From: a virus
Taxonomy: Duplodnaviria > Heunggongvirae > Uroviricota > Caudoviricetes
Virus record (IMG/VR): IMGVR_UViG_2657245006_000001
DNA: 11,651 nucleotides
Direction: 5' to 3' (one strand)
Below are positions 1,564-10,821 of the stretch, piece by piece. Positions within the stretch are counted from its first letter, which is position 1. Each line of letters starts with the position of its first letter. A program made the position numbers and the translations under genes. The notes under the pieces were generated by a model. That model did not search any database. It was not told the origin of the DNA and saw nothing but the letters and a program-made list of their open reading frames with translations.

Positions 1564-1719
1564 TTACTCCTCAGGTTCGTAAGCTGTGAAGACAGCGACC
1601 TCCGTCTGGCCGGTTCGGATTCGTACCTCGCAGAGGTCTTTCCTCGTTACCAGTGCCGTCACTATGACGGTTAAACAGATGACGATCAGGGCGATTAACA
1701 TCGCCTTTTGCTGCTTCAT
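1564..1719 (-). CDS. hok: Hok/Gef-family type I toxin, 51 aa
   Basis: Hand translation gives MKQQKAMLIALIVICLTVIVTALVTRKDLCEVRIRTGQTEVAVFTAYEPEE: one N-terminal transmembrane helix and the conserved Hok periplasmic tail with Cys. AAGGAG lies 9 nt upstream of the ATG at 1719. Not in the ORF track because it is under 60 aa. Recalled as near-identical to HokD (RelF). Confidence 0.85.
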   Translation of the reverse strand: MKQQKAMLIALIVICLTVIVTALVTRKDLCEVRIRTGQTEVAVFTAYEPEE

Positions 1720-1775
1720 AGCCTGCTTCTCCTTGACCTTTCGGTCCGTAAGAGGCTAATCTCTATGTGTCGCAT
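1716..1775 (-). CDS. Mok-like leader ORF (19 aa) whose stop overlaps the hok start codon
   Basis: ATG at 1775..1773 opens MRHIEISLLRTERSRRSRL. Its TGA (1718..1716) overlaps the hok ATG (1719..1717). Resembles the mok/hok coupling arrangement but is much shorter than plasmid R1 mok; Shine-Dalgarno is weak. Confidence 0.3.
   Translation of the reverse strand: MRHIEISLLRTERSRRSRL
1733..1762 (+). promoter_or_regulatory. Candidate Sok-type antisense promoter facing into the hok leader
   Basis: TTGACC (1733-1738), 18-nt spacer, TAATCT (1757-1762) on the plus strand. A transcript starting near 1769 would be antisense to the leader-ORF initiation region (start 1775). A hairpin GCGTC-ttgcag-GACGC (1801-1816) flanked by direct TAATGTTAA repeats lies downstream. 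Confidence 0.3.
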
Positions 1776-1977
1776 AGATATGGCCTCAGATTAATGTTAA
1801 GCGTCTTGCAGGACGCGTAATGTTAACTGGGGCTTTTCTCTATCTGCCTTTTGGTGTTCATGCCTGAGACAGATAGCCTCAAGCACCCGCAGTCATTCTA
1901 CTTAACTAAGATTTCCCCGCAAACCGTTTTTGTCCGGCACAGTAAATATCCAACTAAACCAATGGCGTTCGCTGTAT

Positions 1978-3085: not shown

Positions 3086-3442
3086 TTATTCAGTTCTGGA
3101 TTTTGTCGCCCTGCGTATCCGCGCTTTCGCGTTACGCTCAATCTGAATTAGCTTTTCTATATTTTTTCGCCTTTCCCGCTCCTCCTGACGCAAGAGCCTT
3201 ACATCATCTGCCAGTCTGGTTTCTCTTTTCGCCACAGAGAGCATCCAGTCAAATGGCTCCACAACTGCACCGCAGATTTTACAGCGGACCTGACGCTCTT
3301 TTTCGTCAACCCGGACAGAGGCGTGATGACAATATGGTCTTTCCGATGGCTCATAAAGAAAATTAACCTGATTACGAGGGTCATCCTCTTTTACCGGAAA
3401 TAAAACGATATTGCTTAACTCATCCTCTGGTTTTATTTCCAT
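3086..3442 (-). CDS. Hypothetical protein, 118 aa, Cys/His cluster and basic coiled-coil-like C-terminus
   Basis: Preferred start is the ATG at 3442..3440 with AGGAG 6 nt upstream (MEIKPEDELSN...). The track ORF extends to a GTG at 3499 directly after the upstream stop, a possible alternative. Motif YCHH...RCKICG, then an RE/K-rich tail. Confidence 0.55.
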   Translation of the reverse strand: MEIKPEDELSNIVLFPVKEDDPRNQVNFLYEPSERPYCHHASVRVDEKERQVRCKICGAVVEPFDWMLSVAKRETRLADDVRLLRQEERERRKNIEKLIQIERNAKARIRRATKSRTE

Positions 3443-3499
3443 GCTCCTCTCCTTTGATGCGAATGCCAGCGGTAATTGAAGCCTGATAGCTAATTTCAC

Positions 3500-3922
3500 T
3501 CACAGTACCGCCTCCTGAAAATTACCCTGATAGAAAGCCAGTACACGCTGCATAGCTTCACTCTTCCGGCACTCGCGACAGATTATGTTTAGGCGACTGT
3601 CGTAGCGACGTATTTCTCCGTCAGGTGATGACCAGATAAGGTCCGGATCAACCACAGCAGGTTTCTTCACCTTTGCCCTCGAGAGTTTTTTGCGGGCGTT
3701 TTGCCAGTCCTTACGCGCCTGTTCAGAGGGGAATAACCCGTAGCCGGAGTTGTATACATCGCCGCTGGCAACCAGCTCTCTTGCGAGAACGCTCATCAGA
3801 TATCTTGTCGCACCTGTCTTGACTTCCAGTTGCCGTAACGTCTCACGCCCACTCTGGCGTACGAGTTCAACAACCTGCCCTTTAATTTTTTCTCGCTCTT
3901 CTTGTGTAAAAACTTTTGCCAC
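3500..3922 (-). CDS. Hypothetical protein, 140 aa, putative helix-turn-helix
   Basis: GTG start at 3922..3920 with AGGAGG 4 nt upstream; TGA at 3502..3500. Contains an HTH-like stretch (TLRQLEVKTGATRYLMSVLARELV). Sits directly downstream of the replication initiator. Confidence 0.6.
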   Translation of the reverse strand: MAKVFTQEEREKIKGQVVELVRQSGRETLRQLEVKTGATRYLMSVLARELVASGDVYNSGYGLFPSEQARKDWQNARKKLSRAKVKKPAVVDPDLIWSSPDGEIRRYDSRLNIICRECRKSEAMQRVLAFYQGNFQEAVL

Positions 3923-3962
3923 AAGCCCTCCTGAAAATTACCTCATGACCAGAAATCAACAC

Positions 3963-5033
3963 TTACCCCCTGAAGCCCGGTGGAATTTCGGTATCCGGTT
4001 CAGAAATATGATTCACACAACGCTGGTTGTTCGTGCCGCTTACCGGGAGCAACCAGGGGTTCTCAAAATTCCGGTCCGGTCCAAAAAACGTCGTCGCTCG
4101 CTGAACAAATTCCGTTCCCGTTTTCCCGGTAGCCGCCAAGTATCTTGCGTAACGCCTCACGCCATCCAGCATGGCCTCTGGTGGCACCCCCTCGCGTAAT
4201 CTGGCCTTCCAGGCACTGAAAGCGGATTTCTTCGGGTTTGCTCCGGCACGCAACGGGTACTCCCGCCAGACCTGTTCGAACACATCCGGATAATCCACTC
4301 GTCCCACAGACAGCCCGGTGTTTTCCGGGACTACCCGATCGGCTTCCCGCTGAATGGCGGAATCGGCTTCAGGCTGCTGCAGTTGGTGTGATTGCTCCGG
4401 CCTTGGGGTCATCACCTGCTGCACAGCGCCCGAATCGGCTTTCAGCGCATACGCTGAATCGGCTTCCGGTGTCGTGCCTGCTGGCTGACCAGGATTGACG
4501 GTCTGAACATCCCCTGCCTGGTTCGTGGCGTTTTTTACGCCATGGACCATAGTGTTTTGATCTTCTTGATCTGTATCTTTATCTGTATCTTTATCTGTCG
4601 TGACTCGTCGTGACATGTGCGTGACATTTCGTGACGCGCCGTGACAATCGCCATTTTGTTCCCGCTTTCTTTCCCTCTCTCGCTGCGCCCTCTTGCGCTC
4701 TGCCGGAGATTTTGCGGTTTGCGAAATATTGCCGTTGTCCTCTTTCAGCACCTGGCGTTTTTCCCATCCAGTGATTAAATCACCATCAAGTACCCGCCCC
4801 TGCATCGTCTGCAAAATTGAATCAATTACCTCTTCTGTCACGTCGAGCGCACTTGCCAAATCTTCTGTCGTGACATCAATGTGACCTCGCGTGACATTTC
4901 GTGACGCGCTCACCAGGAGGTGGATATACACTGCCATCACTGTTGCAATTGGCTGCCCTGACACCCTGGCAATTGTTCGCCACTTAGGGTCATTTGGCAT
5001 GTCATGCCATAATCTGAGCCAGGCGTTAGCCAT
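3963..5033 (-). CDS. Replication initiator (lambda O-like role), 356 aa: winged-helix N-terminal domain, acidic repeat linker, conserved C-terminal domain
   Basis: ATG at 5033..5031 with GAGGT 5 nt upstream (the track ORF begins two codons earlier at a GTG). Position after the cro and CII-like genes matches lambda O. The gene contains two phased GTGAC repeat arrays. The C-terminal motif FEQVWREYPLRAG...FVQRATTFFGPDRNFENPWLLP is recalled as a phage replication-associated family. Confidence 0.65.
   Translation of the reverse strand: MANAWLRLWHDMPNDPKWRTIARVSGQPIATVMAVYIHLLVSASRNVTRGHIDVTTEDLASALDVTEEVIDSILQTMQGRVLDGDLITGWEKRQVLKEDNGNISQTAKSPAERKRAQRERERKREQNGDCHGASRNVTHMSRRVTTDKDTDKDTDQEDQNTMVHGVKNATNQAGDVQTVNPGQPAGTTPEADSAYALKADSGAVQQVMTPRPEQSHQLQQPEADSAIQREADRVVPENTGLSVGRVDYPDVFEQVWREYPLRAGANPKKSAFSAWKARLREGVPPEAMLDGVRRYARYLAATGKTGTEFVQRATTFFGPDRNFENPWLLPVSGTNNQRCVNHISEPDTEIPPGFRG
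4569..4650. repeat. Iteron-like array 1 inside the initiator gene: 12-bp tandem repeat plus five phased GTGAC motifs
   Basis: ATCTGTATCTTT occurs twice in tandem (4569-4592). GTGAC occurs at 4600, 4610, 4621, 4631 and 4641, spaced 10-11 bp. The 19-mer GTGACATTTCGTGACGCGC (4621-4639) is repeated exactly at 4891-4909. A polypyrimidine tract follows at 4651-4710. Confidence 0.55.
4831..4910. repeat. Iteron-like array 2 inside the initiator gene: four phased GTGAC motifs plus one inverted copy
   Basis: GTGAC at 4870, 4881, 4891 and 4901 with 10-11 bp spacing; inverted GTCAC at 4837-4841; TCTTCTGTC repeated at 4831 and 4861; shares the exact 19-mer with array 1. Confidence 0.55.
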
Positions 5034-5104
5034 ACTCACCTCTTCTGATACCGAATCTTTTTACTCACGAGTTGCCGGAAGCGATTCGATATGGCTATTG
5101 TCAG

Positions 5105-5530
5105 TCAATGTACTGCCACAGCATTTCCTGCCGGGCCACCACGGTTCATCTGATTGAAACCGGCGATTGCCACTGCGACAAAATCATCAGCGTCTCTCAC
5201 CAGTCGCTCCCGCGTCTCCACCAGCTCCCGAAAATAAGCTGAACTGTGGCTGCGCATTCTGGCCACCAGCAAAGGTGGCATTGCCTTTTCGATCGCTGGT
5301 AACAACGCCTGAATTTTTTCAACTGCATCAGGGGTGTCTTTCTCTACCCAGCGGAAAATTTTCTGGGTATTGCGAGCCAGGGCTTCCGGATGGCTGTCGT
5401 CATACAGTTCCGGGAACGTCATTCCCAGCTCGAAATACGCTTTGGTAATTTTCGCAGCCGGTACTTTTTCGCCGTCCGGATGCGCCCAGGCATTCATCGC
5501 CATGCGGATGTGTTCATGCTTGATTTTCAT
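5105..5530 (-). CDS. ydaT: YdaT-family protein (functional analogue of CII), 141 aa
   Basis: ATG at 5530..5528 overlaps the cro-like stop (ATGA). N-terminus MKIKHEHIRMAM... and C-terminus ...AVAVH are recalled as the YdaT family. Position immediately after cro matches lambda cII. Confidence 0.7.
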   Translation of the reverse strand: MKIKHEHIRMAMNAWAHPDGEKVPAAKITKAYFELGMTFPELYDDSHPEALARNTQKIFRWVEKDTPDAVEKIQALLPAIEKAMPPLLVARMRSHSSAYFRELVETRERLVRDADDFVAVAIAGFNQMNRGGPAGNAVAVH

Positions 5531-5757
5531 GAATCCCCCCCTTGGTTAGAAGGCGGATTATGATCAGAACCGGGAATGACAACCGTCGGTATGTGTAACT
5601 CATATTTGAGCGCCCCGGCAGTGACTGCCTGAATTAGCAACGCCCATTTCCACGGAACCTCTTCCCCCCACATGCTGACTGTGGTTTTTGACGTTCCTAG
5701 AGCTGCGGCTGTTTTAACAACTCCGCCAAAATAGCCTAATACTTCTGATTTTTTCAT
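5527..5757 (-). CDS. cro: Cro-like HTH repressor (YdaS/Cro family), 76 aa
   Basis: ATG at 5757..5755 with GGAG 6 nt upstream; the upstream in-frame extension in the track ORF has no Shine-Dalgarno. HTH motif GGVVKTAAALGTSKTTVSMW. Divergent from the CI-like gene across a 91-bp region. Confidence 0.75.
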   Translation of the reverse strand: MKKSEVLGYFGGVVKTAAALGTSKTTVSMWGEEVPWKWALLIQAVTAGALKYELHIPTVVIPGSDHNPPSNQGGDS

Positions 5758-5848
5758 GAGTCGCTCCATAAAACTGAACGTCAAAAGTTTAATAATCAAA
5801 ACCAAAGAAAGTCAAGAAACAAAACCATCTGTGTTTTAAAATCAAAAC
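5758..5848. promoter_or_regulatory. Divergent immunity promoter and operator region between cro and cI
   Basis: AT-rich 91-bp spacer. AATCAAAAC is repeated at 5792-5800 and 5840-5848, with TCAAAAG at 5781-5787. Imperfect palindrome TGTTTT-aaaatc-AAAACA at 5832-5849. TAAAAT (5837-5842) lies about 7 nt before the cI ATG and no Shine-Dalgarno precedes it, consistent with a leaderless cI mRNA as in lambda PRM. A leftward -35 TTGACT (minus strand, 5815..5810) could serve cro. Confidence 0.45.
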
Positions 5849-6487
5849 ATGAGCAAGCAAACTATATCTGAACGCATAACCCAACGTATGCATGCGCTAA
5901 ACCTGAAAGGCAAAGACCTTGTCAATGGCACTGGCGCATCAAAAGGCTCCGTAAGTCAATGGATGAACGGTGGAGGAGCGCCGTCCTCGCGTTACATAAG
6001 TTCACTGGCAAAAATATTGAAAGTAAACGAAAATTGGCTTCTTAATGGAGGAGAGTTAAATACAGGTGATTCGCTTGATCTATCTTTACCGCCGATAAAA
6101 ACGGTTCCGCTACTATCACTTCAGCAGGCAGCAAGCTGGAGTGATTATATGAAAAATTCCTCAATAACCTCTTGTGTGCAGCTTGTCGGAGAAATCCCGG
6201 TCAATACCTTTGCAGTTGTTCTAGAGAGTGACAGTATGTCAACATCTGGTGGGGGAGTTTCCATCCCAAATGGTTCAACAGTTTTTGTTGATCCCGATCG
6301 AACCGTACAACCAGGAAATATTGTCCTTGCCTTACCCAAAGGGACCACAACACCTGTCATTCGTAAACTGGAGATAGAAGGGCCGGATATTCTTTTAGTC
6401 CCCACGAATCCTCGCTACCCTTCAATTATGCTGGATGATCTATCTTGCATATTGGGCGTATGCTTTAAAATTCAACAAGATATTTAA
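5849..6487 (+). CDS. cI: CI-like prophage repressor, 212 aa: N-terminal XRE-type HTH plus C-terminal S24 (LexA-like) autopeptidase domain
   Basis: ATG at 5849, TAA at 6485-6487. N-terminal HTH (ISERITQRMHALNLKGKDLVNGTGASKGSVSQWMNG). C-terminal domain has the Ser nucleophile context ESDSM and a downstream Lys (VIRKLEIEG), as in LexA and lambda CI. Confidence 0.85.
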   Translation: MSKQTISERITQRMHALNLKGKDLVNGTGASKGSVSQWMNGGGAPSSRYISSLAKILKVNENWLLNGGELNTGDSLDLSLPPIKTVPLLSLQQAASWSDYMKNSSITSCVQLVGEIPVNTFAVVLESDSMSTSGGGVSIPNGSTVFVDPDRTVQPGNIVLALPKGTTTPVIRKLEIEGPDILLVPTNPRYPSIMLDDLSCILGVCFKIQQDI

Positions 6488-7313: not shown

Positions 7314-7668
7314 TAGCTAACCAACGAAGCTAAGGTTGGTAATTAAGGAGTTCTCCACGGGTGAGGTGGAGTGCGTGCGCCGGACACGGGTGAGCATCCG
7401 GCACTGACAGTTTACTGAAAGGATATTTCCCTGAAAAGTCAGACCATAACGCGAAAGCGCACGGCGAGGTAGCTGGTTCATAGATAGCCTGTCGTTAAAT
7501 TTTCGTCGACCGTGCGCTTCCGGTTGTGGCAACCCGCGAAATGGTGCGGCGGTAAGTATGGCGGGGTTATTTCTTCCCCGTTGAGGACACCGGGTTGTCA
7601 GGTTGACCATACGCTTAAGTGACAACCCCGCTGCAACGCCCTCTGTTATCAATTTTCTGGTGACGTTT
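7314..7668 (+). other. GC-rich structured non-coding block with no ORF (candidate structured RNA, regulatory element or gene remnant)
   Basis: All three plus frames are full of stops; the only minus ORF (7317..7652) starts at a non-ATG codon and is Arg-rich. Perfect stems: 7455-7464 with 7510-7519 (10 bp), 7592-7600 with 7620-7628 (9 bp), 7379-7384 with 7397-7402, 7320-7325 with 7335-7340. CACGGGTGAG repeated at 7356 and 7385. A sampled line hand-counts to about 60% GC. Confidence 0.3.
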
Positions 7669-7711
7669 GGCGGTATCAGTTTTACTCCGTGACTGCTCTG
7701 CCGCCCTTTTT
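7669..7711 (+). terminator. Candidate intrinsic terminator at the end of the structured block
   Basis: GGCGG (7669-7673) pairs with CCGCC (7701-7705); an imperfect inner stem extends the hairpin; T-run at 7707-7711 follows. A U-tract exists only for the plus strand. Confidence 0.4.
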
Positions 7712-8349: not shown

Positions 8350-10821
8350 ATGAGTAAAGTCTTTATTTGCGCCGCTATTCCTGACGAACTGGCAACAAGG
8401 GAAGAAGGCGCTGTGGCTGTAGCCACAGCCATTGAAGCTGGCGACGAACGCCGTGCTCGAGCAAAATTTCACTGGCAATTCCTGGAACATTATCCGGCTG
8501 CTCAGGACTGCGCTTATAAATTTATTGTCTGCGAGGATAAACCTGGCATACCCCGCCCTGCCCTCGATTCATGGGATGCTGAATATATGCAGGAAAACCG
8601 CTGGGATGAGGAGTCTGCTTCTTTTGTCCCGGTTGAGACTGAATCCGATCCGATGAACGTCACTTTTGACAAGCTGGCCCCTGAAGTACAGAACGCTGTC
8701 ATGGTTAAGTTCGACACATGTGAAAACATCACCGTTGATATGGTTATTAGCGCACAGGAATTGTTGCAGGAAGACATGGCAACATTCGACGGACATATCG
8801 TTGAAGCGTTGATGAAAATGCCAGAAGTTAACGCCATGTATCCGGAGCTTAAGTTGCACGCCATTGGGTGGGTTAAGCATAAATGTATTCCTGGTGCTAA
8901 ATGGCCCGAAATTCAGGCAGAGATGCGCATCTGGAAAAAACGTCGCGAAGGTGAACGCAAGGAAACCGGAAAATACACGTCTGTTGTTGATCTCGCCCGC
9001 GCCAGAGCCAATCAACAGTACACTGAAAATTCAACAGGAAAAATCAGCCCGGTCATTGCTGCCATTCATCGCGAATACAAGCAGACATGGAAAACACTGG
9101 ATGACGAACTGGCCTACGCTCTCTGGCCTGGTGATGTGGATGCCGGAAACATTGACGGCAGCATCCATCGCTGGGCAAAAAATGAAGTTATCGACAACGA
9201 CCGCGAAGACTGGAAGCGTATCTCGGCATCAATGCGCAAACAGCCTGATGCCCTTCGCTACGACCGCCAAACTATTTTTGGCCTTGTCCGTGAGCGTCCG
9301 ATCGACATTCACAAAGATCCCGTAGCACTGAACAAATATATCTGCGAATACCTGACGACAAAGGGCGTGTTTGAGAATGAAGAAACAGACCTGGGCACTG
9401 TTGATGTTCTCCAGTCATCAGAAACACAAACTGATGCAGTGGAAACTGAGGTATCTGATATCCCAAAAAATGAAACCGCGCCGGAAGCTGAACCATCTGT
9501 AGAGCGTGAGGGGCCGTTCTATTTCCTCTTCGCAGATAAGGACGGAGAAAAATACGGTCGCGCAAACAAACTTTCTGGTCTGGATAAGGCACTGGCTGCT
9601 GGCGCCACTGAAATCACAAAAGAAGAATATTTTGCCCGAAAAAATGGCACATACACGGGCTTACCGCAAAATGTAGATACCGCTGAAGATTCAGAACAAC
9701 CAGAGCCGATAAAAGTTACCGCTGACGAAGTAAACAAAATTATGCAGGCAGCCAATATCATCCAGCCTGACGCCGATAAGTTGCTTGCTGCATCACGTGG
9801 TGAATTTGTTGAAGGGATTAGTGACCCGAATGATCCGAAATGGGTTAAGGGGATCCAGACCCGCGATTCTGTGAACCAGAACCAGCATGAATCGGAACGG
9901 AACTACCAAAAAGCGGAACAAAACAGCCCAAATGCGTTACAAAACGAGCCAGAAACGAAACAGCCTGAATCAGTGGCGCAACAGGAAGTGGAAAAAGTCT
10001 GCACCGCCTGCGGTCAGACCGGCGGCGGCAACTGCCCTGATTGTGGCGCGGTAATGGGCGACGCAACATACCAGGAAACATTCGATGAAGAGTATCAGAT
10101 TGAAGTTCAGGAAGATGATCCGGAGGAAATGGAAGGCGCTGAACATCCACACAAGGAGAACACTGGCGGCAATCAGCATCACGATAGCGATAATGAAACT
10201 GGCGAGACGGCAGATCACTCAATTAAGGTGAACGGTCATCAAGAAATCACATCCACCAGCAGGACGTGTGACCATCTAATGATCGACCTTGAAACCATGG
10301 GAAAAAATCCTGATGCCCCGATCATCTCAATAGGTGCAATATTTTTCGATCCGCAAACCGGAGATATGGGACCGGAATTTAGTAAGACTATCGATCTGGA
10401 AACTGCTGGCGGAGTCATTGATCGGGACACCATTAAATGGTGGCTTAAGCAATCACGCGAAGCGCAATCTGCCATTATGACCGATGAAATCCCGTTAGAT
10501 GATGCACTGTTACAATTGTGGGAATTTATCGACGAAAACTCCGGTGAATTTTTTGTTCAGGTCTGGGGAAATGGAGCCAACTTCGACAACACGATTTTGC
10601 GCCGTTCATACGAACGGCAGGGGATCCCCTGCCCGTGGCGTTACTACAACGATCGCGATGTACGCACAATCGTTGAGCTGGGGAAAGCCATAGACTTCGA
10701 TGCCAGAACGGCTATTCCATTCGAAGGTGAGCGCCATAATGCACTTGATGACGCCCGTTACCAGGCAAAATACGTTTCAGTTATCTGGCAAAAACTGATC
10801 CCGAGTCAGGCTGATTCTTAA
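8350..10821 (+). CDS. Large early-left protein, about 823 aa: long N-terminal region of unknown function, acidic linker, C4 zinc ribbon, C-terminal DEDDh 3'-5' exonuclease domain
   Basis: Preferred ATG at 8350 with GAGG upstream (the track ORF starts at a TTG at 8314); TAA at 10819-10821. C-terminal roughly 190 aa (from about 10264) carries DEDDh motifs: MIDLET, WGNGANFD, HNALDDA. Zinc ribbon CTACGQTGGGNCPDCG near 10000-10046. Possibly related to proteins annotated as exodeoxyribonuclease VIII in prophages (recalled, unverified). Confidence 0.8.
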   Translation: MSKVFICAAIPDELATREEGAVAVATAIEAGDERRARAKFHWQFLEHYPAAQDCAYKFIVCEDKPGIPRPALDSWDAEYMQENRWDEESASFVPVETESDPMNVTFDKLAPEVQNAVMVKFDTCENITVDMVISAQELLQEDMATFDGHIVEALMKMPEVNAMYPELKLHAIGWVKHKCIPGAKWPEIQAEMRIWKKRREGERKETGKYTSVVDLARARANQQYTENSTGKISPVIAAIHREYKQTWKTLDDELAYALWPGDVDAGNIDGSIHRWAKNEVIDNDREDWKRISASMRKQPDALRYDRQTIFGLVRERPIDIHKDPVALNKYICEYLTTKGVFENEETDLGTVDVLQSSETQTDAVETEVSDIPKNETAPEAEPSVEREGPFYFLFADKDGEKYGRANKLSGLDKALAAGATEITKEEYFARKNGTYTGLPQNVDTAEDSEQPEPIKVTADEVNKIMQAANIIQPDADKLLAASRGEFVEGISDPNDPKWVKGIQTRDSVNQNQHESERNYQKAEQNSPNALQNEPETKQPESVAQQEVEKVCTACGQTGGGNCPDCGAVMGDATYQETFDEEYQIEVQEDDPEEMEGAEHPHKENTGGNQHHDSDNETGETADHSIKVNGHQEITSTSRTCDHLMIDLETMGKNPDAPIISIGAIFFDPQTGDMGPEFSKTIDLETAGGVIDRDTIKWWLKQSREAQSAIMTDEIPLDDALLQLWEFIDENSGEFFVQVWGNGANFDNTILRRSYERQGIPCPWRYYNDRDVRTIVELGKAIDFDARTAIPFEGERHNALDDARYQAKYVSVIWQKLIPSQADS

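Follow-up and report, generated by a model that had tools for sequence, protein, structure and literature searches.

A DnaT-type C-terminal tail on the lone replication initiator of a lambdoid Escherichia coli prophage, and its association with DnaC-like helicase loaders

The IMG/VR virus record IMGVR_UViG_2657245006_000001 (Caudoviricetes), a stretch of 11,651 nucleotides (nt) analysed at its full length and referred to here as the window, corresponds to the early region of a Qin/Rac-like lambdoid Escherichia coli prophage, whose module contains a single replication gene. This gene encodes an initiator, under the NCBI name 'phage replisome organizer' (3963..5033, minus strand; 356 amino acids (aa); phrog_3729). 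It is followed on the same strand by a DUF977/LygF/Ren-like gene (3500..3922; 140 aa; PF06163, phrog_142) and by a gene for a zinc-ribbon and coiled-coil protein (3086..3442; 118 aa; phrog_1621, with a sub-threshold match to Zn_Ribbon_TF). These are the three genes that an earlier note on this DNA had described, and they are present with the positions and product sizes it gave. The longest initiator open reading frame (ORF), at 3963-5039, begins at GTG 5039 and comprises 358 aa; translation probably starts at ATG 5033, 5 nt past AAGAGG, and the 356-aa product agrees with NCBI annotations. Residue numbers given below are those of the 358-aa ORF. The longest ORF of the zinc-ribbon gene (3086-3499) corresponds to 137 aa, and the 118-aa form starting at ATG 3442 is the one called by the Prokaryotic Genome Annotation Pipeline (PGAP) in EC32, the closest complete-genome match.

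The initiator matches phrog_3729 'replication initiation protein' from end to end (E 1.8e-256). At E<=0.1, no Pfam family is matched apart from a sub-threshold HTH_Crp_2; neither the lambda O/replisome-organizer N-terminal family nor Phg_2220_C is found, so that membership of the lambda O type, as far as sequence is concerned, follows from PHROG 3729 only. The protein is predicted to comprise four parts, namely, in order, a DNA-binding domain at the N-terminus, a long disordered linker, a small helical domain towards the C-terminus, and a final tail of about 13-25 residues. The N-terminal helical domain (approximately aa 1-128; 4656..5033, minus strand, as for the other parts) is presumed to bind the origin; in the AlphaFold2 (AF2) model, it consists of helices at 2-82, with a predicted local distance difference test (pLDDT) score of 74-85, and of an extra helix at 111-128. 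The linker (approximately aa 129-245; 4305..4655) is acidic and rich in Pro and Gln, has a pLDDT of about 30, and differs in length among homologues. The small C-terminal domain (approximately aa 246-333; 4041..4304), of the 'YPxxFEQVWxxYPxRAGxNPK…GVRRY…TFFGP' type, is modelled as helical at 250-305, and the tail (25 residues, SGTNNQRCVNHISEPDTEIPPGFRG; 3966..4040) as unstructured. Assigning a fold from the full-length AF2 model, by Foldseek against the PDB, only returned weak winged-helix matches (E>3) and was uninformative. The possibility that the globular C-terminal domain is a diverged DnaT domain was also considered and rejected, with a probability of 1.7% in hhalign against a genuine DnaT-like profile; this domain has no Pfam match, including PF17948, and a profile search of the PDB with it finds no DnaT.

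The earlier note had claimed that no gene of this module is of the DnaB, DnaC or lambda P type, and profile searches bear this out. The initiator, the DUF977 protein, the zinc-ribbon protein, and the remaining window ORFs gave no match to DnaB, DnaC/IstB or lambda-P profiles (Pfam, PHROGs, NCBIfam). An AAA+ domain with a Walker A motif (DnaC/IstB, PF01695) is likewise absent from the three proteins and from the neighbouring ORFs; the genuine DnaC-like genes of sister loci were readily picked up by these searches. No downstream gene of the window matches Phage_lambda_P (PF06992), nor does any downstream gene at the 186 classifiable loci bearing the tail that are described below. The same note had allowed for a helicase gene located just outside the region, but none was found in the whole EC32 prophage, nor in phages Evi, Tritos and LLS. 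In EC32, no helicase or loader is annotated from integrase to capsid, and none is present in Evi (40 kb) and Tritos (46 kb), two complete genomes that have the same initiator and DUF977 gene, or in the genome of the plaque-forming phage LLS. A DnaB/RecA-like helicase gene is absent from the window, the EC32 prophage, Evi, and Tritos. The loader-less arrangement is thus real, and it has already been published as an unexplained puzzle. According to a 2025 Genome Research paper (PMC12315714), 34 of 314 Enterobacterales lambdoid phages only possess an O homologue, with neither helicase nor loader, and replication of this O-only type 'is not yet understood'.

The most informative part of the initiator is its tail. 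When the whole protein is compared with E. coli DnaT by BLASTP, only the tail aligns, with 15 of 25 residues identical to DnaT 155-179 (60%, E 1e-7), and there is no counterpart of the DnaT N-terminal oligomerisation domain or of its acidic PriB-binding linker. The end of the initiator, …ISEPDTEIPPGFRG, is nearly identical to the DnaT sequence SEPDxxIPPGFRG. The tail also matches the PDB entries 6aep, 2ru8 and 9zbt, as well as positions 156-179 of the NCBIfam DnaT C-terminus NF002770 (E 0.0016). A motif, …[ST]xP[DE]xxIPxGFRG, is common to E. coli DnaT and at least 40 phage initiator lineages of unrelated domains. The tail is also borne by the initiator of LLS, the sole replication protein of this phage, which ends in …KIPEGFRG, a sequence that could not be selected by the tail search pattern used. 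The LLS protein belongs to a family (HTH_36 + Phg_2220_C) in which all members are solo initiators, i.e., followed by no loader gene; IPxGFRG is invariant there across pairwise identities of 40-99%, and the 20 residues or so before it drift. The variable residue of IPxGFRG shows no clear difference between solo and DnaC-coupled lineages. In the openly searchable literature, no description was found of the tail motif, of its spread over initiator architectures or of its association with loaders, nor was any mechanistic account of initiator-solo modules, PPGFRG, DUF977 or LygF; the Eru typing papers treat such regions only descriptively.

The gene neighbourhoods of nine initiators gave an initial hint, as the DnaT-type tail occurred with a DnaC-like gene or with nothing, and an acidic tail with a lambda-P-like gene. 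A search by initiator alignment retrieved only near-identical copies in viral contigs and 10 loci in genome contigs. Tail and loader sampling of IMG/VR was used instead, in three ways: by the DNA pattern of the tail (PD..IP.GFRG), by DnaC-like genes, and by P-like genes. Each sample holds the best 80 loci or loci among the matches listed, and redundant E. coli prophages are included. The tail sampling yielded 199 complete ORFs ending in the tail (136 unique), which form 40 lineages at 90% identity and fall into six N-terminal and five pre-tail domain families; members of different families show no similarity in BLAST (single linkage, E<1e-3). Thirteen of the 199 loci were unclassifiable, the downstream sequence being too short. 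Among the 186 classified, a DnaC-like gene lies immediately downstream at 67 loci (27 lineages), with a median gap of 6 nt, and no loader is found downstream at 119 loci (16 lineages), whereas a lambda-P-like gene immediately downstream was found at 0 loci, in 0 lineages. Three lineages contain both DnaC-coupled and solo members. Sampling from the loader side gives the same picture: ORFs upstream of DnaC-like genes carry the tail in 79/79 cases (42 distinct tail sequences), compared with 0/79 for those upstream of P-like genes (63 distinct tails), and the association is highly significant by Fisher's exact test (9e-47 on loci, 3e-30 on unique tails). The 79 P-coupled initiators include 45 with a DnaT-like globular domain and 17 with the C-terminal domain type of the window, and none with the DnaT tail. 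As the DnaT-like globular domain occurs there without the tail, the association is carried by the tail and not by the globular domain. The initiator of the window itself (at >=90% identity, i.e., at least 90%) is found with a DnaC-like gene at 7 loci and without one at 91. Over their full length, the DnaC-like proteins of the phages are homologous to E. coli DnaC (6qel, E 9e-76); a handle for one would therefore plausibly fit the other.

About three-quarters of the P-coupled tails match an acidic pattern, [LIVM][DE]x(2-4)W, near their end. These initiators (L226-L305), whose tail is of an acidic …LDxxxW… type like that of lambda O, mostly end in one or two acidic motifs, such as …NLxEP[LV]DxEEW… and …LD[CS]xDW/R..DD, and lambda O (L386:187-1086) ends in …KLDLTNTDWIYGVDL. 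The acidic motifs resemble …LDLTNTDWIYGVDL of lambda O and are a candidate docking tail for P, as a counterpart to the DnaT-type one.

Homologues of the initiator are mosaics of the parts described above. In some, the N-terminal domain is of the same kind and precedes a true DnaT-like domain (PF17948) and an acidic tail, …LDCPDW…; in others, both the N- and the C-terminal domain are retained and the tail is acidic; others again have a different N-terminal domain together with an identical C-terminal domain and the DnaT tail. The 'FEQVW…YPxRAG…GVRRY' C-terminal domain is also found beyond Enterobacterales, in Halomonas, Kushneria, Gemmatimonadaceae and other metagenome-assembled genomes (L100-L105), without a DnaT-type tail; one of these relatives (L101) is followed by a P-loop ORF (GKPGAGKS), possibly a helicase. 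In a relative from Scandinavium sp. (L097:4001-4789), the motif is internal (…IPPGFRGHVPEDQET), and a 547-aa ORF overlaps the stop codon of the gene. Four database proteins (P0103, P0106, P0018 and P0019) are read-through or chimeric calls that join the initiator to the downstream P-like gene, to DUF977 or to tail-fibre domains, and such gene calls could mislead surveys of domain architecture.

The initiator gene also contains what appears to be a replication origin. Two clusters of iterons lie on the minus strand. Cluster 1 (4869..4905) has four GTCAC(G) repeats spaced by 10, 10 and 11 bp, with one inverted copy beside it at 4837-4842, and cluster 2 (4599..4645) has five GTCACG repeats spaced by 10, 10, 11 and 10 bp. 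All nine GTCAC copies in the gene fall within these clusters (gene positions 135-166 and 395-436). The spacing of 10-11 bp places the repeats on one face of the helix, and since they are in different codon frames, they are a feature of the DNA rather than a peptide repeat. CGTGAC occurs 13 times in the window, for 4.7 expected, a count reached in none of 200 shuffles. Directly past cluster 2, an AT-rich stretch (4555..4594, minus strand; 75% AT, against 46% for the gene) is the richest 40 nt of the initiator gene in this respect. It holds a 12-nt tandem (GATAAAGATACA, twice) and is a candidate unwinding element. It is followed by an imperfect palindrome (4519..4549) with a 13-pair stem, the DNA fold of which is predicted at -8.7 kcal/mol (z -3.05; 2 of 200 shuffles were equally stable). 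Cluster 2, the AT-rich stretch and the palindrome are all spanned by the region encoding the disordered linker (4305..4655). The two copies of the tandem, at 4564-4587 (TCTTGATCTGTA / TCTTTATCTGTA), encode TDKDTDKD. The number of D/T/K repeats varies in homologues (TDKDTDKDTD, TDTDTDTD, DKDKDKD), which suggests slippage-prone DNA at the presumed unwinding element.

In the origin of phage lambda, iterons, an AT-rich region and a palindrome follow one another in this order. In the lambda record retrieved, four iterons lie inside O. The layout with two clusters is kept in homologues that have the same N-terminal domain (L008, L009, L011 and L013). The homologue L012, whose N-terminal domain is unrelated but whose C-terminal domain and tail are the same, carries five copies of another iteron of 14 nt (AAGGGGCTTCGAAG), again in two clusters (5185-5209 and 5441-5476), which are 245 bp apart and have an 11-bp phasing. 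In L012, the architecture of the origin thus appears to be retained and its specificity exchanged, the iteron covarying with the N-terminal domain. From this anatomy and covariation, we infer that the replication origin lies within the initiator gene.

Altogether, it is rather probable, judging from these comparisons, that the tail serves to recruit a DnaB-bound loader of the DnaC type, which would be the host's own where the phage has none. The initiator would first bind the iterons and open the AT-rich region. The tail would then capture a DnaC-type loader complexed with host DnaB, and in loader-less modules this would be the DnaC-DnaB complex of the host, after which the host replisome would assemble. 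The loader-less prophage thus probably borrows host DnaC-DnaB. We infer that the tail may physically bind DnaC or DnaB-DnaC. In E. coli, the dnaT gene lies in the same operon as dnaC, and PMC13377028 cites genetic interactions of the two. The more general proposal, that …[ST]xP[DE]xxIPxGFRG could be a portable docking motif for DnaC-family loaders, is a tentative one, to which we give slightly less than an even chance. [quoted passage not shown] The comparative evidence favours recruitment of host machinery by the initiator C-terminus and speaks against a new loader among the small proteins; the first option is nevertheless refined, in that the informative part is the extreme tail and the likely target a DnaC-type loader on DnaB, not the naked helicase.

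Several points weigh against this interpretation. The putative contact between the tail and DnaC is deduced from comparison, and the presumed origin function is read from anatomy and covariation. The samples are limited and redundant, the first one was selected by the motif itself, and the loader classes stem from BLAST clustering to a few references and not from curated profiles for each locus. As the codons of the tail lie right next to the loader gene (median gap given above), part of the covariation could reflect a co-inherited recombination block and not a functional coupling. A 2026 paper on the preprimosome structure proposes DnaT's N-terminal domain, and not its tail, as the recruiter of DnaB/DnaC, and according to a 2024 paper, a direct contact of DnaC with PriA, PriB or DnaT had not been demonstrated. 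Finally, DnaT lacking residues 154-179 binds single-stranded DNA (ssDNA) about 3-fold more weakly and with lower cooperativity (PMC4132743); considering these data, the tail may serve DNA binding or oligomerisation.

Among the alternatives, the best surviving one, although unlikely, is that the tail mimics DnaT in the restart preprimosome. The initiator would open the origin and the tail, together with the C-terminal domain, would recruit PriA and/or PriB; the PriA-PriB-DnaT pathway of the host would then load DnaB, and a restart protein instead of DnaC would be the direct partner of the tail. The tail does derive from a preprimosome protein, the C-terminal domain of DnaT docks on PriA (PMC13377028), and sister initiators bear a whole DnaT-like ssDNA-binding domain. 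Nevertheless, every E. coli host has PriA and PriB, whichever loader the phage brings, so that neither the exclusion of the tail from P modules (0/79) nor its constant occurrence upstream of DnaC-like genes (79/79) would be predicted, and the model of the PriA contact is based on DnaT 84-153 (PDB 4OU7), which does not include the tail.

Slightly less likely still, the tail would be a general element for ssDNA binding or self-association, stabilising the open origin, with DnaB being loaded by ordinary host routes (e.g., DnaA-independent, transcription- or recombination-dependent loading) and no contact between tail and loader. This would agree with the stronger and more cooperative ssDNA binding of DnaT 84-179 relative to DnaT 84-153 (PMC4132743), with the need of LLS-type phages for RecBCD-promoted recombination for growth, reported in PMC12315714, and with the strong enrichment of the window in Chi sites. 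However, such a generic tail should be equally useful with P-type loaders, with which it was never found, and the invariant IPxGFRG core resembles a short protein-docking motif.

The loader-less modules could also be decaying remnants, in which a DnaC-like gene was recently deleted, leaving the tail behind and no autonomous replication. The occurrence of the same initiator with a DnaC-like gene at 7 loci is in keeping with this, as is the truncation of some carriers, such as L012, in which host-like transporter genes follow DUF977. This explanation is nonetheless quite improbable. LLS forms plaques on E. coli K-12, and its only replication gene bears the tail; Evi and Tritos were deposited as complete genomes with full structural modules; and the O-only type accounts for 34/314 lambdoid phages (PMC12315714). 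Moreover, the tail persists in 16 independent solo lineages, one all-solo family keeping the motif invariant across 40-99% identity.

The two small genes are accessory genes. DUF977 matches PF06163 with 98.5 bits for a cut-off of 22.1 (E 4e-28) and phrog_142 'Ren-like exclusion protein' (E 2e-47). Its C-terminal motif is 60% identical to that of lambda Ren over 20 aa, and the gene occupies the ren position. It follows the initiator in 20 of the 40 lineages, with a median gap of 40 nt, and is found after solo, DnaC-containing (Shigella phage 75/02, Rac-SA53) and primase-type modules alike, while it is absent from LLS and from other solo lineages. The zinc-ribbon protein belongs to the uncharacterised phrog_1621 (E 3e-56), and its gene (downstream family D5) accompanies 8 of the 40 initiator lineages at a variable distance (median offset 1191 nt) and is absent from Evi and Tritos. 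Sensitive profile searches, which the earlier note had proposed for both proteins, thus matched neither to a known loader. We regard DUF977 as an accessory gene of the Ren type and the zinc-ribbon gene as an accessory of variable occurrence, and neither as a loader. That one of them would be a novel small loader or adaptor replacing P or DnaC is the least probable explanation, for although both lie directly downstream in the same operon, DUF977 also follows modules already equipped with a DnaC-like loader and a primase-type module, is Ren-like, and is absent from LLS, and the zinc-ribbon gene is missing from complete phages with this initiator.

By its organisation, the module seems to work like lambda O-P, with the P step outsourced; in lambda, O brings in the P-DnaB complex. 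Like O-P, it lies past cro and cII-like genes and is followed by a ren-like gene; in the initiator, a flexible linker joins an N-terminal part for origin binding to a C-terminal part for partner binding; and the origin is intragenic, with iterons, then the AT-rich stretch, then the palindrome. In contrast to lambda, there is no P gene, the initiator has no Pfam lambda O domain match, its tail is of the DnaT type and not …LDLTNTDW… as in lambda O, and it has two iteron clusters instead of one. The resemblance to E. coli DnaT is confined to the last 25 residues (60% identical) and to the genetic context, as the tail-bearing gene precedes or depends on a DnaC-type loader. Unlike DnaT, the initiator possesses neither the DnaT N-terminal domain nor the PF17948 three-helix ssDNA-binding domain, and it is targeted by sequence-specific iterons, whereas DnaT is targeted by PriA/PriB.

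The module is closest to the initiator and DnaC-like gene modules YdaU-YdaV of Rac and gp15-gp16 of Shigella phage 75/02 Stx ('Eru4'), minus the loader, and it belongs to the O-only class. The Rac and 75/02 modules have the same initiator tail and a downstream DUF977 gene, and 75/02 gp15 has the same C-terminal domain as the initiator of the window, at 82% DNA identity, but they encode their own DnaC-like loader, while this module encodes none. The O-only phage LLS has a lone initiator that ends in IPEGFRG and no helicase or loader, like the window, although the globular domains of its initiator (HTH_36 + Phg_2220_C) are unrelated; the tail is not mentioned in the accessible part of PMC12315714. 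In DopC-DopE (PMC5509034), the C-terminal part of an O-like protein is replaced by a DnaT-derived sequence, so that fusions of this kind have been recognised, but the loader that accompanies DopC is P-like. What DopC has in common with DnaT is, by analogy, probably the globular domain and not the tail, since the 45 P-coupled initiators mentioned above have the DnaT-like globular domain and no DnaT tail.

The module itself is common and annotated; the predicted intragenic origin, the identity of the DnaT tail, its association with loaders, and its occurrence in LLS are new. The mechanism proposed is likewise new and touches on an open question in the field of replication restart. If the docking motif holds true, it would explain how loader-less lambdoid phages load host DnaB, provide the missing contact for the hand-over from PriA-PriB-DnaT to DnaB-DnaC, and suggest a phage initiator-loader module as the ancestor of the dnaT-dnaC operon. 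One short peptide is a candidate for the contact both in O-only phages (about one lambdoid phage in ten) and in the restart preprimosome. The tail type could also offer a simple annotation rule for predicting the dependence on host factors, of relevance to the replication typing and host range of Shiga toxin (Stx) phages.

On the minus strand, the order of the genes is Cro-like, YdaT/cII-like, initiator, DUF977, zinc-ribbon, several small genes, hok/sok, and DUF968. The YdaT/cII-like gene (5105..5530; PF06254, E 7e-10; phrog_163, E 2e-45) is directly upstream of the initiator. The Cro-like gene (5527..5805; PF14549 P22_Cro, E 1.6e-15), the first of the rightward early operon, likely starts further in, at about 5769, and is called with 80 aa by PGAP. 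Divergent from this operon, a CI-type repressor with helix-turn-helix (HTH) and S24 peptidase domains is encoded on the plus strand (5849..6487; PF00717, PF01381, phrog_4), which also carries DicF, dicB-region genes, an exonuclease of 835 aa that includes a 3'-5' exonuclease domain, and an excisionase. In 185 complete E. coli genomes, the window is covered to at least 80%, at about 96-98% identity, its central part is common to several deposited phage genomes, and the initiator is found at 98-100% identity in at least 80 IMG/VR contigs.

The repressor of the window comprises 212 aa (HTH + S24), and EC32 only has an S24-only 'LexA family protein' of 112 aa (L001:17681-18019); the immunity regions thus vary among otherwise near-identical prophages. 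Two RNAs were located with Rfam, namely the sok antitoxin RNA (1717-1888, minus strand), which adjoins the hok gene (1564-1719), and the DicF small RNA (7655-7706, plus strand), upstream of the dicB-like region. The Chi sequence (GCTGGTGG) occurs seven times in the 11.65 kb, for 0.29 expected, and none of 200 shuffles had as many. The sites lie at 478-485, 884-891, 942-949, 2368-2375, 5218-5225, 5263-5270 and 10253-10260, and such a density agrees with PMC12315714, which describes a class of lambdoid phages that are rich in Chi and have no anti-RecBCD gene.

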